From contig CAWDMF010000013.1 in assembly GCA_963803185.1 (NCBI GenBank), forward strand, positions 12,067-76,066: a DNA stretch of 64,000 nucleotides. Reading direction: 5' to 3'. The stretch is from an uncultured Gammaproteobacteria bacterium (lineage in GTDB: Bacteria > Pseudomonadota > Gammaproteobacteria > SZUA-229). The notes below the pieces were generated by a model. The model had not been told where the DNA came from, made no database searches, and saw only the letters and a list, made by a program, of their open reading frames with translations. Shown here piece by piece: positions 3,359-53,599 of the stretch. How positions within the stretch are numbered: position 1 is the first letter of the stretch; every line of letters begins with the position of its first letter. The translations under genes and the position numbers were made by a program.

Positions 3359-3372
3359 TAGTTACTCAAATA

Positions 3373-3445
3373 TTAGTTGTATGTTTTAAGTTGTATGTTA
3401 TAGGTTTTTAACTGCTAACTTAAAACTTTCAACTTATAACTAATG
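3373..3445. repeat. AT-rich inverted-repeat element (family 2: AAGTTGT/AACTTAT heptamer arms)
   Basis: gttgtatgttttaagttgtatgtta ... taacttaaaactttcaacttataac arms flanking short spacer; related copy at 7479-7608. Confidence 0.6.
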
Positions 3446-7474: not shown

Positions 7475-7478
7475 TTTA

Positions 7479-7608
7479 TTAGTTGTAAGTTTTAAGTTTT
7501 AAGTTCATTGTAAAAAAACCGTTATAATTATCAAGCAGTTTTATATTATTAACTTGCAACTTTTAACTTACAACTTAAAACTTATAACTTATAACTTATT
7601 TTTAAAGT
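7479..7608. repeat. AT-rich inverted-repeat element (family 2), overlaps last codons of hslR
   Basis: gttgtaagttttaagttttaagtt ... aacttacaacttaaaacttataacttataac inverted arms around 60-bp spacer. Confidence 0.6.
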
Positions 7609-7989: not shown

Positions 7990-8952
7990 TCAGATTAATA
8001 AAGCTATCCCAACGATGCCTAATAGCCACCACCAAAGACTGCTACTTTCCTGTTCAGGCTTTTCAGGCTCTTTAAGCTCTGTTTTTACCACAGGTTTAAT
8101 CACACCCGGTTTAATTTTCATTTTCCTGGGCACCGCTTTTGGCAATGGCACATAAGCGGTTTCACCTTTGGCGATGACTTCATTTCCCGCTTCATTATGC
8201 ACATTAACCAGGCCTTTGATCACTTCCAGATAAAGCCCGTCATCTGCATCAATGGTACCGCCACAGCCTTTGGACTGGAATACTCGCAAGGCATATTCTG
8301 TGCCACGCACACCAACACTGGCTAGCGGTGTTTTTAACTCATAAACATCTTCTGTCATTTTCCCGATCTTGCCGGTTATTTTTTTCAAACTGCCCTGTAG
8401 TAAATTCAGGATACTTTTGCGATTGCTGTTATTTAACGCGTATTCTTCAATCACCATAATACTGAAACACCTCAAATCCAGTATGGCTTCATCAATCATA
8501 CGAAGACGCACAGAACCGTTTTCGCCAGTAACAACCTTGTCACCTAAAAAGACCGGGGAACCAGTTGATAATTCTCGTGACACTTTCCTTTTATCAACCG
8601 CAATCACACTACCACTGTTTTCTACGACAATCCCTACCTGTTGTCTTTTTACCGGTTTTACCGGCTCAGAACGAACCACAACTTTTTGCGGTAAAGTCAG
8701 GCGCACACCTGCTTTCATCTGCGTTGGATCATTATTGATAAACGCATGTGGATTTTGTCGTACGATATCGTTAGTTATTTTCGGCCACTGTTTTACCCGA
8801 TTGGGATATAACTGTTTAACGATATTATGCAGTGTTTGCCCTTTTTGCACATGCAGATAGCGGATATCAGTGTTATAGGCTTCTTTGGCGAATGAGACCG
8901 ATGGATGAAAACCGAGTACAAATAAAAAAATCAATAACTTAACTAGGAACAT
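7990..8952 (-). CDS. secreted LysM-like/FecR-domain protein with C-terminal TM anchor
   Basis: Signal peptide, LHVQKGQTLHNIV LysM-like segment, FecR-like core (GDKVVTGENGSVRLRM), C-terminal hydrophobic helix. Confidence 0.5.
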   Translation of the reverse strand: MFLVKLLIFLFVLGFHPSVSFAKEAYNTDIRYLHVQKGQTLHNIVKQLYPNRVKQWPKITNDIVRQNPHAFINNDPTQMKAGVRLTLPQKVVVRSEPVKPVKRQQVGIVVENSGSVIAVDKRKVSRELSTGSPVFLGDKVVTGENGSVRLRMIDEAILDLRCFSIMVIEEYALNNSNRKSILNLLQGSLKKITGKIGKMTEDVYELKTPLASVGVRGTEYALRVFQSKGCGGTIDADDGLYLEVIKGLVNVHNEAGNEVIAKGETAYVPLPKAVPRKMKIKPGVIKPVVKTELKEPEKPEQESSSLWWWLLGIVGIALLI

Positions 8953-9076
8953 CTTTACTTTGGAGAGGTAGTTTGAATACTCAAAGTATAGCTATAGATG
9001 TTCTGTTTTTGAGAAATTCTTTACAATAATGCTAAGGAACCTCTGAATAAGTCATGAATCGACATCTTGTGATTAA

Positions 9077-9153
9077 AATGGCCTGCTTCAAGGCGTGTAA
9101 CGCGCGTAATAGCAGGGCTATTGCGAAGTTTCACAACGATGAAGCAGGCCATT
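9077..9153. repeat. hairpin (14-bp stem aatggcctgcttca / tgaagcaggccatt, about 45-nt loop)
   Basis: seen directly in sequence downstream of htpG. Confidence 0.5.
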
Positions 9154-9198
9154 TAACCGACAATCTGTTCGAACCAGACTTAATCAGAGATTCCCTAA

Positions 9199-9407
9199 AA
9201 CTTATTTAGTCCACGAAGCACGCACTAAAATGCCGGGAGCATTTTGAACGTACGCTAGTACGGTCCGAAGGACGTAGCACAGGAGGCGCGTAGTAAAACA
9301 CGCAAATATTTTTAAGCTAAAAAAAGCTTTTATCTGTGTTGACATGCAGGGATAGCGCTAATGTAGCCTGCGCATGGAGCGCAGGAGCTACCATCTGCGT
9401 GCATCTG
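9199..9407. repeat. degenerate copy of family-1 palindromic element (GAACGCAAAT-type)
   Basis: left arm ttatttagtccacgaagcacgcac, right arm catctgcgtgcatctgtggac resemble arms of copies at 14381, 22848, 53418. Confidence 0.45.
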
Positions 9408-9423
9408 TGGACTGCTATTTTCT

Positions 9424-11328
9424 TTATTTGTCTAACAGTTTATTCACTCGTTTCACAAAACCAGCTGCATCTTCCAGAGGCGCACCGGCTGCAAGCTGTG
9501 CCTGCTCAAATAACAGATGCGTATAATCTTCAAACTGGTCATCGTCTGTTATATCGTTAAGTTTTTTAACCAGACTATGATCTGGATTTAACTCCAGTAT
9601 TGGTGCTGATTTTGGCGCATATTGCCCCGCCGCCTCCATAATCTGCTGCATTTGTGCACTCATGTCGTTTTCTTCTAATACCAGACACGACGGCGAATCT
9701 GTTAAGCGTTGCGATAAACGAACTTCTTTGACTTTATCACCCAGCACTTTAGTCGCATGTTCAATAACCGAGGTAAAAGTTTTTTCTGTTTCTGCAAGTT
9801 CCTTCTTATCTTCTTCCTCGTCAATATCAAGCGTACCACGAGCTACTGACTGCAGTTTTTTACCGTCCACTTCAGTCAGGTGTGATACCAGCCATTCATC
9901 AACACGGTCACTCAATAACAATACTTCAATGCCTTTTTTCTTGAACACTTCCAGGTGCGGGCTATTTTTTGCTGCCGTGTAATTATCTGCAACAATGTAA
10001 TAAATTTTCTCCTGGTTATCAGGCATACGCGAAATATAATCATCCAGAGTAACGTTCTGTTCATCATTGCCATTATGTGTACTGGCAAACAACAATAGTT
10101 TTGCAATACGCTCTTTGTTTACCATGTCTTCGATTGGACCTTCTTTCAGCACCTGGCCAAAAGATTTCCAGAAAGTCGCATATTTTTCAGCATCCTTTTT
10201 CTGCAGAGACTCAAGCAAACCCAGCACTTTCTTCACTGAAGCACCGCGAATTCGATCGATTACCTTGTTCTGCTGCAATATCTCACGTGATACATTTAAT
10301 GGTAAATCATCTGAATCGATAACACCTTTAACAAAACGTAAATAGGTAGGCATCAACTGTTCTGCATCGTCCATAATGAAAATACGTTTTACATACAGTT
10401 TTACCCCGCGTTTATGGTCACGGTCGAATAAATCAAACGGTGGATTGGTTGGTATGTAAAGCAACGATGTATAACTTTGATTGCCTTCTACTTTTGAGTG
10501 TGTCCAGCTCATCGGGTCGGCAAAATCCATGCTGACGTGTTTATAAAATTCCTTATAGTCTTCGTCAGAAATATCACTTTTATCACGAGCCCACAATGCA
10601 GATGCGCTGTTTACGCGCACCTCTTTGGTGATGACGTTACCATCAGCATCTTTTTCAGGCTTGCCTTCATCATCCAGCGCTGCTTCAGTCATCATTACTG
10701 GAATTGAAATATGATCAGAATACTGCTTGATTATGCTTTTCAGGCGATAGGGGCTGGCGAATTCGGTTTCGCCCTCTTTCAGATGCAGGGTAACTTTGGT
10801 GCCGCGTGTTTCCTTGTCAATATTTTCCAGCGAGAAACTGCCTTCGCCATCAGATTCCCAACGAACAGCTTCATCGGAAGCAACACCTGCACGGCGTGTC
10901 TCCAGGGTAACTTTATCTGCTACGATGAAACTGGAATAAAATCCCACACCAAACTGACCGATCATCTGAGCGTCTTTAGCCTGATCACCACTCATCGCCT
11001 CAAGGAATTTTCTTGTTCCTGAACTGGCAATTGTGCCTACATTATCAATCACTTCCTGACGCGACATACCAATACCATTATCACTAATAGTGATGGTTTT
11101 AGCTTCTTCATCAAAAGCAACGTGGATCGATAATTCAGAATCGCCGTCATACAGACTATCGTCGGCCAAAGCCTCAAAACGAAACTTATCACAGGCATCA
11201 GATGCATTCGATACAAGTTCCCGCAGGAATATTTCTTTATTTGAATACAGTGAATGGGTCATCAAATGCAGGATTTGACGGGCTTCTGTTTGAAATTCGA
11301 GGGTTTCTTTACTCGCTTCGACGCTCAT
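9424..11328 (-). CDS. htpG: molecular chaperone HtpG (Hsp90)
   Basis: [16 protein letters not shown] ... GIGMSRQEV ... GQFGVGFYS motifs, 634 aa. Confidence 0.95.
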
Positions 11329-14380: not shown

Positions 14381-14519
14381 AGTCCACAGATGGACGCAAA
14401 TGAACGCAAATATAAAACCTGGTATGGATCTGTGTATTTGGCATTCATAAGGTGTTAATCAAGTGGGTTTGGTATTACAAAGATTTTTCTTTGCGTTCAT
14501 TTGCGTTCATCTGTGGACA
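14381..14519. repeat. family-1 palindromic element (arms agtccacagatggacgcaaatgaacgcaaat / atttgcgttcatttgcgttcatctgtggac)
   Basis: about 30-bp inverted arms containing tandem GAACGCAAAT decamers around 78-bp spacer. Confidence 0.8.
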
Positions 14520-16827: not shown

Positions 16828-17045
16828 TAGTCACTCTCAAAATTCTTTAAATAAATGACCTTTCGGTCACAGGAAACCGCGCATTTTACGTGATTATTTC
16901 GCTAGATGGAAGCCTGATTTACGGATAAAAACAAGAATGATTAACCGCCGAGACGCAGAGGCATAGAGAAAAACCTTAAATAGTCGGCGAATAAAGCTTC
17001 CGCATCCTGCTCACGCCCCTTACCTACGTACATCTAGGCAACGCG

Positions 17046-17211
17046 AAAGGCGCAAATGAACGCAAACAAATGCAAATTAAAAATTTCTTTTATTCTTTTG
17101 CAGGTTGGGCGCTGCCCACCGAAATGCCGGCAGTATTTATAGAGAAGGCGCACAATGCCCGCCTTACCAATCTACGCTTTTAAATATTGGCGTTCATTTG
17201 CGGACTACTAG
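17046..17211. repeat. degenerate family-1 palindromic element between ffh and rpsP
   Basis: gcgcaaatgaacgcaaacaaatgcaaat ... ggcgttcatttgcggactac. Confidence 0.55.
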
Positions 17212-22782: not shown

Positions 22783-22796
22783 AAACCCTGAAACTA

Positions 22797-23037
22797 TTTT
22801 GCCGCGAAAAACGAAAAGAACGCGAAAGACGCAATAAAAGCTTATTTAGTCCACAGATGAACGCAAATGAACGCAAATCGAAAACTAGAGGATTTGTAAG
22901 GACTAAATCGTTTGATTTTTACAGGTGGTGCTAAAAAAGATTTAGATTTTACAAAAGGTTTATTTGCGTTCATTTGCGTTCATCTGTGGACAATATTTCT
23001 TTTGTTTTTCGCGCACTTTGCGTTTTTCGCGGCAAAA
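22797..23037. repeat. composite family-1 palindromic element: inner GAACGCAAAT-type arms (22848-22991) nested inside outer inverted repeat (gccgcgaaaaacg / cgtttttcgcggc)
   Basis: agtccacagatgaacgcaaatgaacgcaaat ... atttgcgttcatttgcgttcatctgtggac plus outer 13+ bp IR. Confidence 0.8.
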
Positions 23038-23085
23038 CAGTTTTTAATGTTCATTTCTACATGACTATATCAAGTCTCGAATAGT

Positions 23086-36058: not shown

Positions 36059-36224
36059 TAGATTCACTCTGAAAAACAAGCCGTTATTGTACACAACAGG
36101 CAGTTGAGACACTATTTAAGGAAGAAATATATGATTAATCCGGGCATTGAAGTAAATAGTGCAGCCTAACTGTATAACGACACTTTATGCTCAGCGGCGG
36201 AGTGAAAATTCTTTATCATTCCTT

Positions 36225-36255
36225 CCGCAAATGAACGCAAATACACGCAAATAAT
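36225..36255. repeat. solo half-arm of family-1 element (ccgcaaatgaacgcaaatacacgcaaat)
   Basis: matches arm motif without a partner arm nearby. Confidence 0.5.
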
Positions 36256-36390
36256 AATCTTTTTAACAACCACAAAAGTTATTTTTCTATACTTAAGCCG
36301 AATTTAGCATGGCTATGCAATATCCGGCGTAAGCAGACAATAAATAGCACCATCATGATGCACTTCTGTTCCACAAATAATATCTAGAGA

Positions 36391-36700
36391 CATGGATCGG
36401 AAGCACCTTGCTGAGACCGTCAGCCACAGGGCAGGTGTTTTGCTCCTGCAAAACCTGCACTTCCACCGTCCGTGGTGGTCGGATGTGGCTGCCGAGCCCC
36501 CATGGATGGGTTTACGGCGTGTCTCAGCAAGGTGCTTACGGTTCATGTCGGTTGTAAACAATGCTTTTAAGCAGATACACTGGCACCGAGACATGAATTG
36601 TGTGTTACCGCCAAAGACACGCCGTAAACCCATCCATGGGGGCTCGAACCCCGCATCCATGCGTGATACGGTCTTTGGCGGTAACACGCAACCCATGCCT
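36391..36700. repeat. complex block of interleaved GC-rich inverted repeats (three or more overlapping hairpin pairs)
   Basis: catggatcggaagcaccttgctgagac / gtctcagcaaggtgcttacggttcatg; gagcccccatggatgggtttacggcgtgtc / gacacgccgtaaacccatccatgggggctc; tgtgttaccgccaaagac / gtctttggcggtaacacg. Confidence 0.7.
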
Positions 36701-36790
36701 CTCATATTTGTGAAACCGAAGTGCATCATGATGGTGCTATTTATAAATCAGACCCTGTCGCAGATATCAGGGTTAAAATATTTAATGATG

Positions 36791-39500: not shown

Positions 39501-39543
39501 GTCCAGGGAATCTCAAATCAACTAAATTAGAGATTCCCTGGAC
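39501..39543. repeat. perfect 14-bp stem hairpin (gtccagggaatctc / gagattccctggac, 15-nt loop) 42 bp after PilZ stop, no U-tract
   Basis: seen directly. Confidence 0.6.
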
Positions 39544-47794: not shown

Positions 47795-47960
47795 TCCGCA
47801 AATGAACGCAAATAAAAAATTTACGAGTGTTTTTTAAAGTTATTTGCCTCTTGTATTTTAATCAAGCGATGCAGATGCATTTCATAAATTTATTAAAAGG
47901 CTTCACCTAGTAACGCAAATGCAATTCTATTTTTGTTTTTATTTGCGTTCATTTGCGGAC
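47795..47960. repeat. family-1 palindromic element between convergent genes
   Basis: tccgcaaatgaacgcaaat ... atttgcgttcatttgcggac. Confidence 0.75.
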
Positions 47961-53417: not shown

Positions 53418-53599
53418 GTCCGCAGATGAACGCAAATGAACGCAAATAATAACAAAACAGTAAAACTGTCATACTGGACGACAGTGAAAGATCTAACACT
53501 TTAATATGCCACCAAGGTTGCAAGATCCTTCACCGTCGTTCAGGATGACATAAAATTATATATTATTTTTTTTGCGTTCATTTGCGTTCAACCGTGGAC
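53418..53599. repeat. family-1 palindromic element
   Basis: gtccgcagatgaacgcaaatgaacgcaaat ... ttgcgttcatttgcgttcaaccgtggac. Confidence 0.8.

Follow-up and report, generated by a model that had tools for sequence, protein, structure and literature searches.

Gene-less intergenic hairpin doublets in a gammaproteobacterial genome and their probable kinship with inverted-repeat cassettes carrying GxxExxY putative nuclease genes

We analysed a 64,000-nt stretch of DNA from an uncultured gammaproteobacterium (hereafter the window), the intergenic regions of which carry dispersed pairs of inverted, tandem-unit arms. We consider it probable (about 0.6) that these copies are gene-less, non-coding members of an inverted-repeat (IR) cassette family whose full-length form carries the gene of a GxxExxY putative nuclease. 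Small hairpin-forming extragenic repeats are an already known kind of element; the GxxExxY link, the tandem-unit design of the arms, and the cross-phylum identity of the arm sequence were not found in the searchable literature.

Results

Inverted arm pairs in the window

The original prediction of a family of repeated intergenic palindromes was borne out, in that inverted pairs are present at the sites it named and the 20-mer GAACGCAAATGAACGCAAAT, with up to 3 mismatches, matches the 64-kb window 13 times versus 0.02 times expected from shuffles; a count of 13 was reached in 0 of 100 shuffles. The single 10-mer, with up to 1 mismatch, gave 23 window matches versus 7.5 expected. In total, six pairs, four of them intact and two degenerate, and a solo arm were counted in the window. 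Each arm, ∼30 bp long, comprises a terminal (G/A)TCC(A/G)C followed by two to three head-to-tail 10-bp units (..ATGAACGC..), and the arms surround AT-rich spacers, which is the architecture that had been described; the spacers span 77–127 nt, have a GC content of 27–34% (versus 44% for the window), and are mutually unrelated.

The four intact pairs lie where they had been placed. One of them, at 14382–14518, has arms at 14382–14411 (GTCCACAGATGGACGCAAATGAACGCAAAT) and 14489–14518 around a spacer of 77 nt and 32% GC; it is located 3′ of the terminator of rplS, in the upstream region of a TPR gene, and its predicted RNA hairpin has a folding energy of −61.3 kcal/mol (z −8.3). Another, at 22849–22991, with perfect 30-nt arms (22849–22878 and 22962–22991) and a spacer of 83 nt, is nested, as it occupies the loop of an outer element (22791–23043) with a distinct but related arm flavor, GCCGCGAAAAACGAAAAGAACGCGAAAGACGCAATAAA. 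The 48-nt arms of this outer element (22791–22838 and 22996–23043) are 83% complementary, its predicted DNA fold reaches −83.7 kcal/mol (z −16.3), and it begins 9 nt past the radA stop codon, upstream of xseB. The third intact pair, at 47795–47959, is flanked by convergent genes, and it begins 10 nt past the stop codon of a 265-aa gene; its 24-nt arms (47795–47818 and 47936–47959; TCCGCAAATGAACGCAAATAAAAA) are 100% complementary, with 117 nt between them. The last, at 53418–53599, begins 20 nt past the proS stop codon, upstream of an SLT-domain gene, and its arms (53418–53447 and 53570–53599) read GTCCGCAGATGAACGCAAATGAACGCAAAT and its complement around a 122-nt spacer that is a hairpin in itself; the predicted RNA fold of the element reaches −77.7 kcal/mol (z −12.2). 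Thus, the anticipated capacity to form long hairpins is upheld by the predicted folds.

The ends of the degenerate pairs are better set at 17039–17205 and 9209–9412 than at the positions first given. The former, in the ffh/rpsP intergenic region, has the left arm CAACGCGAAAGGCGCAAATGAACGCAAACAAATGCAAAT and the right arm ATTGGCGTTCATTTGCGGAC. The latter, 3′ of htpG, has the termini GTCCAC...GTGGAC, and its left arm is split by a structured module of ∼77 nt at about 9220–9300. This module is inserted within an arm unit, right after ACGC, and folds as a three-way junction closed by ACGCAC/GTGCGT, with compensatory changes at four base pairs among only three sequences; it had no Rfam match. L135–L137 share it (loci outside the window are given by L numbers): it lies at 1697–1775 and 1905–1983 in L135 and is likewise present in L137, and the first of these sites is empty in L136. 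Because related strains differ in whether one module site is occupied, the module has the appearance of a mobile sub-element with the arms as its target.

The solo arm (TTCCGCAAATGAACGCAAATACACGCAAAT; 36223–36252, plus strand) is one for which no partner arm was found. Beside it lies a hyper-structured, GC-richer region of 416 nt (36335–36750; RNA minimum free energy −226.5 kcal/mol, z −15.2) that contains nested inverted repeats with ATGGAT loops. Within this region, the TwoAYGGAY family (RF01731) scored below threshold at 36581–36708 on the minus strand (36.1 bits versus a 43-bit cutoff), and the ORFs called there had no Pfam match. Other repeats of the window include a second hairpin family at 7476–7599 and 3371–3438, which has tandem-unit arms (TTATTAGTTGTAAGTTTTAAGTTTTAAGTT / AACTTAAAACTTATAACTTATAA) and is intergenic, beside other genes. 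Adjacent to the 9.2-kb copy, an imperfect hairpin with 58-nt arms (9033–9197) has the motif CAGAGATTCCCT / AGGGAATCTCTG in common with a short palindrome at 39501–39543, and the two may constitute another small repeat family.

Placement of the window copies relative to genes

The window carries panCB, pcnB, htpG, rplS-trmD-rimM-rpsP, ffh, radA, xseB-ispA-dxs, proS, and purF, and the flanking genes htpG, rplS, rpsP, ffh, radA, proS, and xseB were assigned by NCBIfam or Pfam. All of the copies are outside ORFs, in keeping with their description as intergenic. Their expected proximity to gene 3′ ends was also recovered, as five of the six pairs begin 9–20 nt past a stop codon (radA, proS, ffh, htpG, and the 265-aa gene). 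Placement between convergent genes, the alternative that had been offered, is true only of the copy at 47795 and does not apply to the radA copy, where xseB is next on the same strand. At rplS, an intrinsic terminator of its own (14579–14553, minus strand) sits between the stop codon and the element at 14382–14518. A Bacteroidota origin of the window, with an invertible Bacteroides-type promoter, was considered and rejected on account of the gammaproteobacterial gene content. Between ∼28000 and 34000 lies an island of 56–59% GC in the 44% GC window, which encodes a LolA-like protein, an RTX-repeat protein, and an ABC transporter-like permease and ATPase (judged from sequence), and which was probably acquired horizontally.

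The elements do not correspond to an annotated structured RNA, since no Rfam 15 family reached its gathering score anywhere in the window; a relaxed-threshold Rfam scan around 8950–9450 gave chance-level matches only and nothing relevant, and a tRNA/tmRNA scan of the window returned none. Pfam or NCBIfam scans of 30 window ORFs matched neither a recombinase family nor an integrase, with the remaining ORFs judged from their N-terminal sequence. Comparison with integron attC sites by inspection showed arms on both sides of the ORF and no R′′/R′ GTTRRRY core. Moreover, an HMM built from the arm-enclosed ORFs of other genomes (see below) detected no GxxExxY gene in the 64-kb window, and a six-frame HMM search of the window spacers for GxxExxY remnants scored no better than shuffled sequence. 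As the spacers are unrelated and without a gene remnant, the window copies do not stem from recent duplication of a single master element.

Distribution of the arm across genomes

The arm is not confined to the window, in that a search of one genome per species with the query GRACGCAAATGAACGCAAA returned at least 116 stretches. Among the matches listed, the exact arm recurs in genomes of 37–71% GC from many phyla, including Gammaproteobacteria (Chromatiaceae, Thiodiazotropha, Sedimenticola, Thiotrichaceae, and others) as well as Planctomycetota, Acidobacteriota, Armatimonadota, Verrucomicrobiota, Cyanobacteria, Spirochaetia, and more. Most of the arms listed stand in inward-facing pairs (plus, then minus), 40–500 bp apart, and several of the listed MAGs have many copies; none of the 116 matches listed shares synteny with the window. 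The arm sequence can be written as (G/A)(T/A)CCGCAAAT(GAACGCAAAT)n, also in genomes of 70% GC. In a position-frequency table, the 30-mer is sharply conserved, the sequence outside of it is weakly purine-rich and then A/T-rich, and nothing is conserved inside. A single arm is not a palindrome (fold of −0.9 kcal/mol), its consensus has no GTAG or CGTC tag, and an arm of three units presents both TGA and ATG in all three frames. In the lower-GC loci, element ends point toward gene 3′ ends 44 times versus 21 times toward 5′ ends, and 26 of the 44 3′-facing ends are within 30 nt of a stop codon.

Spacers do form families inside single MAGs, with identities of 83–85% in Lamprocystis and 88% in a Wenzhouxiangellaceae MAG. 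In a Planctomycetota MAG, whole elements are repeated head to tail in up to 11 copies, with a 186-nt period and 96–100% identity (L108, 5935–7954; L096, 1688–3003; and L084, 5690–6239), and the Planctomycetota arrays include ones of alternating orientation. The L108 array directly adjoins a GxxExxY gene.

A different arrangement was seen in the Moraxellaceae loci L027, L033, L046, L061, and L116 (Acinetobacter/Psychrobacter), where the bare 10-mer forms long one-directional arrays, (GAACGCAAAT)n, and also a perfect palindrome, TTTGCGTTCA|TGAACGCAAA, without a GTCCGC terminus or a partner arm. The IMG/VR loci L223–L229 and L236 share this arrangement, which looks like an iteron or operator of Moraxellaceae phages or plasmids and is probably unrelated to the arms. 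The arm 19-mer was present in only 14 IMG/VR contigs, most of which have a different palindromic or iteron-like layout that resembles the Psychrobacter/Acinetobacter tandem arrays.

Association of the arms with GxxExxY genes

Where paired arms are 400–480 bp apart, they enclose an ORF of ∼125 aa that scores 139–146 bits against TIGR04256 (GxxExxY protein) and 138–144 bits against PF13366 (PDDEXK_3). With the HMM of these arm-enclosed ORFs, 8 of the 116 listed loci were found to carry a GxxExxY gene at the arms; the flavor found in the window brackets GxxExxY genes in L042, L064, L078, L091, L102, L125, L135, and L138, and a flavor similar to that of the outer element at 22791–23043 brackets one in L141. 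When the 177 arm-adjacent ORFs of the 116 listed loci were clustered by BLAST, GxxExxY was the only family recurrently enclosed by arms, no transposase-, recombinase-, or RAYT-like cluster was present, and the other recurrent neighbors, such as carA, look like housekeeping genes. Cassettes in which these arms bracket a GxxExxY gene are present at carA-carB of Gammaproteobacteria and also in one or more other phyla, and arm doublets occur together with a GxxExxY gene within one MAG in Thiodictyon I-2_bin-116, Rhodanobacteraceae SE1508, and Planctomycetota MFD05684.

The association was also approached from the gene. Four homologues chosen only for lying on long contigs are all situated between carA and carB, and the arm-selected loci L042, L064, L091, and L102 are likewise at carA; all three of the four homologues for which DNA was available are flanked by arms. 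In a metagenome sample of 80 GxxExxY loci, 77 of which were testable, a bracketing IR with a score of at least 14 was found at 58 genes, as compared with maximum scores of 12 in shuffled sequence and 9 at 16 neighboring ORFs. A self-period of 9–10 nt is present in 49 of these 58 gene-flanking arms, whose flavors include CGCAGATGAA, CACAGATGAA, CACGGATGGA, GGGGATAAA, CAGGATGGA, CGCAAAGGA, and CGCCGATGCA. Since arms of many flavors bracket GxxExxY genes, the CGCAAATGAA arm of the window is one flavor of a large family of tandem-unit IRs.

In L125 (1595–2080) and L138 (1960–2510), the GxxExxY cassette is wedged into the carAB operon. The left arm contains the carA stop codon (TGA), and the distance from the right arm to the carB ATG is 9 nt in L125 and about 40 nt in L138. 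Further in, the enclosed GxxExxY genes are provided with a Shine-Dalgarno sequence and an ATG of their own, and the ATGs of the arm are therefore probably not real start codons.

In the literature, no paper was found on an association of GxxExxY genes with inverted repeats, and searches for GxxExxY, PDDEXK_3, PF13366, and TIGR04256 returned no functional or repeat-related paper. As for the arm sequence, the 10-mer appeared only in primers, and arm 13-mers gave nothing relevant. A lead on PA4757 gave nothing usable.

The GxxExxY protein

Among GxxExxY proteins, the residues Glu28, Asp67, Glu77, and Lys79 are invariant, which, at the level of sequence, is the E...D...ExK signature of PD-(D/E)XK nucleases. 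The AF2 model (pLDDT 86.8) has its best fold neighbors in the PDB among Cas4 SSO0001, lambda-exonuclease-like proteins, the AddAB/AdnAB (RecB-type) nuclease domains, and MGME1, with TM scores of only about 0.5; no relative was found in the PDB by sequence. The family is large, with at least 7955 proteins (representatives of clusters at 90% identity) at E ≤ 1e-10, and a 2012 survey of the PD-(D/E)XK superfamily lists it as "Unknown, multiple transfers" (PMC3424549). An origin in defense or in phages was considered and rejected, as PADLOC gave no match, PHROG gave a single weak match with no function assigned, and the gene is rare on viral contigs, with only one viral GxxExxY locus found.

Selection and dynamics of the arms

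Comparison of the carA-carB cassettes, whose proteins are 60–72% identical, showed that third codon positions are only 23–52% identical, which means that synonymous sites are essentially saturated. The core of the downstream arm, GCGTTCATTTGCG.TCAT, is nevertheless kept among these cassettes, and arm identity holds at ∼90% where synonymous sites within the enclosed gene have reached saturation; arms beside a GxxExxY gene are thus under constraint. The carA-carB gene appears to have been inherited vertically over long times, a history equally compatible with a domesticated and with a selfish role.

At the rplS site, by comparison, where the element has orthologous copies in L003–L008, the arms have diverged by ∼12%, the spacer by ∼18%, and the third codon positions of rplS by ∼6%. 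As these arms evolve about as fast as the spacer, gene-less copies are not visibly constrained. The site has also been rearranged in several ways. In L003, one arm has three units rather than two. In L004 and L006, where the flanks are colinear, the spacer is inverted relative to the window and L007 (94% identity in reverse complement versus 59% on the same strand). In L001 and L002, the element has been lost by deletion between GTCCA direct repeats (microhomology). This deletion is the sole element-free orthologue, and neither a clean empty site nor a target-site duplication was found, the flanks being A/T-rich and ambiguous. At the ffh-rpsP site, L001 and L002 carry a different arm flavor, ACCGCAGAGGCGCGGAGACGCAGAG. 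A different MITE-like element, with arms CACTGCTGTCCCGTTAAC ... GTTAACGGGACAGCAGTG, is present at ∼3430–3700 of L001, and also in L002, about 60 nt beyond the position of the deleted rplS-site element.

Discussion

A proposed cassette family with gene-less members

Doublets are dispersed in genomes that bear GxxExxY genes and sit tightly behind stop codons, where they nest, form arrays, decay, invert, and are deleted. We infer that GxxExxY proteins may recognise or mobilise the arms. Head-to-tail units of 10 bp place equivalent positions on one face of the DNA helix, and a resident GxxExxY protein could bind these phased units as a multimer. It might then cut at the arm ends, or at an extruded hairpin or cruciform, after which host repair or replication would copy or maintain the doublets in trans, in a manner that would parallel the upkeep of REPINs by RAYTs; for the window, this scheme assumes a trans-acting nuclease in the source organism. 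Side effects on the host can also be envisaged: with TGA in all three frames, an arm would close the upstream gene cleanly, and the long hairpin may serve as a transcript end or as an RNase III site. More tentatively, and with somewhat less confidence than doubt, we propose that GxxExxY genes and tandem-unit IRs together form an unrecognised, cross-phylum class of elements, the sole protein of which, a PD-(D/E)XK nuclease of ∼125 aa, would recognise the phased 10-bp repeats and drive or maintain populations of gene-less hairpin doublets.

Alternative explanations

Small size, a lack of coding capacity, terminal IRs, multiple copies, and nesting are traits of these elements that would also be expected of ordinary MITEs, with the arms serving as terminal IRs for a conventional (DDE or similar) transposase encoded elsewhere and GxxExxY being a frequent passenger. 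This reading would also supply the missing chemistry, as a PD-(D/E)XK nuclease cuts and does not join, and we know of no strand-joining activity or transposition chemistry for such a protein alone. We nonetheless regard it as unlikely, because GxxExxY is the sole recurrently arm-enclosed gene in the listed loci and has no transposase-like cluster for company, because the arming of 75% of gene-selected GxxExxY loci, in many flavors, is hard to explain for a passenger, and because target-site duplications were not seen. Selection by the host for RNA or DNA hairpins that terminate transcription in both directions, stabilise mRNA 3′ ends, or are cut by RNase III, without any mobility, would account for the very stable folds, the 9–20-nt distance from stop codons in five of six pairs, the 2:1 bias to gene 3′ ends, and the T-rich sequence outside the arms. 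It sits poorly, however, with the canonical terminator that rplS already has ahead of its element, with an rplS copy that drifts at about the rate of its spacer and is deleted in L001, and with copies directly before start codons, such as that of carB; furthermore, structure alone needs no identical 30-mer across genomes of 37–71% GC. We therefore judge it quite unlikely as the primary cause, and a host hairpin role is plausible as a side effect.

Two further readings, both of which we hold to be highly improbable, lack defining features for which the elements were tested. In one, the elements are invertons, the spacer of which is flipped by a site-specific invertase as a phase-variable switch, and the inversion of the whole rplS-site spacer between close strains, with colinear flanks, is what such a switch would produce. 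Only a single inversion event was seen, however, and template switching can flip a short spacer flanked by inverted repeats, with no need for an invertase; the window ORFs scanned include no recombinase, none recurs beside the arms at the listed loci as clustered by BLAST, and positions past stop codons or between convergent genes are unsuited to a promoter switch. In the other, REP/REPIN elements are kept by a RAYT (a Y1 HUH transposase), which is the partner that the original prediction had proposed to search for. Hairpin-forming doublets at extragenic sites do match the REPIN definition (PMC3116915), and arrays of alternating orientation are present in Planctomycetota. Against this partner stand the non-palindromic single arm, the lack of the GTAG or CGTC tag, the identity of the arm-flanked gene (PF13366 and not a Y1 transposase), and the lack of a RAYT-like neighbor cluster. 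What survives of that prediction is the broader characterization of a dispersed, MITE- or REPIN-like hairpin family that is unrelated to the REP and ERIC sequences of Escherichia coli, and a cassette family with a GxxExxY gene in its full-length form is the reading that we prefer for it.

If the more tentative proposal of a cross-phylum element class is true, that class would be a nuclease-based counterpart of the REPIN-RAYT system and would provide a first function for the very large GxxExxY family. The association itself yields a testable hypothesis for GxxExxY targets, given that the genes come with conserved phased-repeat arms that are also scattered intergenically as gene-less doublets, and it raises the possibility of a second class of enzymes in partnerships of the REPIN type between a repeat and an enzyme. 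In practical terms, inversion and deletion of arm repeats can occur just past the stop codons of housekeeping genes, where the repeats can also disrupt assemblies or annotations.

Comparison with known systems

The Correia/NEMIS elements of Neisseria are non-coding MITEs of 100–200 bp with terminal IRs of ∼26–30 bp, which are intergenic, are often co-transcribed, and form RNA hairpins. The present elements are like them in size, terminal inverted repeats, intergenic location, and hairpin, and are unlike them in that no target-site duplication or DDE partner was found, the spacers are unrelated, and the full-length relative carries a nuclease-like gene. In the 23S rRNA intervening sequences of Leptospira and Coxiella that contain an ORF, a four-helix-bundle protein is encoded between RNA-pairing inverted repeats; these share with the cassettes a small, selfish-looking, IR-bracketed ORF within a transcription unit (here, the carAB operon), whereas the host site here is intergenic mRNA and not rRNA, and the ORF belongs to the GxxExxY family. 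A very small PD-(D/E)XK enzyme as the only protein of a selfish cassette has a parallel in I-Ssp6803I, a free-standing PD-(D/E)XK homing endonuclease. Homing targets one conserved site, whereas the elements described here are found at many mutually unrelated sites between genes, with gene-less copies in abundance.

A further comparison is with REPINs, which are extragenic, hairpin-forming inverted doublets (PMC3116915; PMC5581495). Like the REPIN-RAYT system, the present family has two short, conserved, inverted sequences that form a hairpin around a poorly conserved spacer, its copies are extragenic, numerous, and arranged in clusters or arrays, and the small enzyme gene is itself flanked by the repeat and apparently transmitted vertically at a fixed site (here, between carA and carB). 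Unlike that system, its arm is non-palindromic, built of 10-bp tandem units, and without a GTAG tag, its protein has a predicted PD-(D/E)XK fold rather than that of an HUH Y1 transposase, and its arm sequence is cross-phylum. By analogy, the fixed, vertical position between carA and carB would resemble that of RAYTs more than that of insertion sequences.
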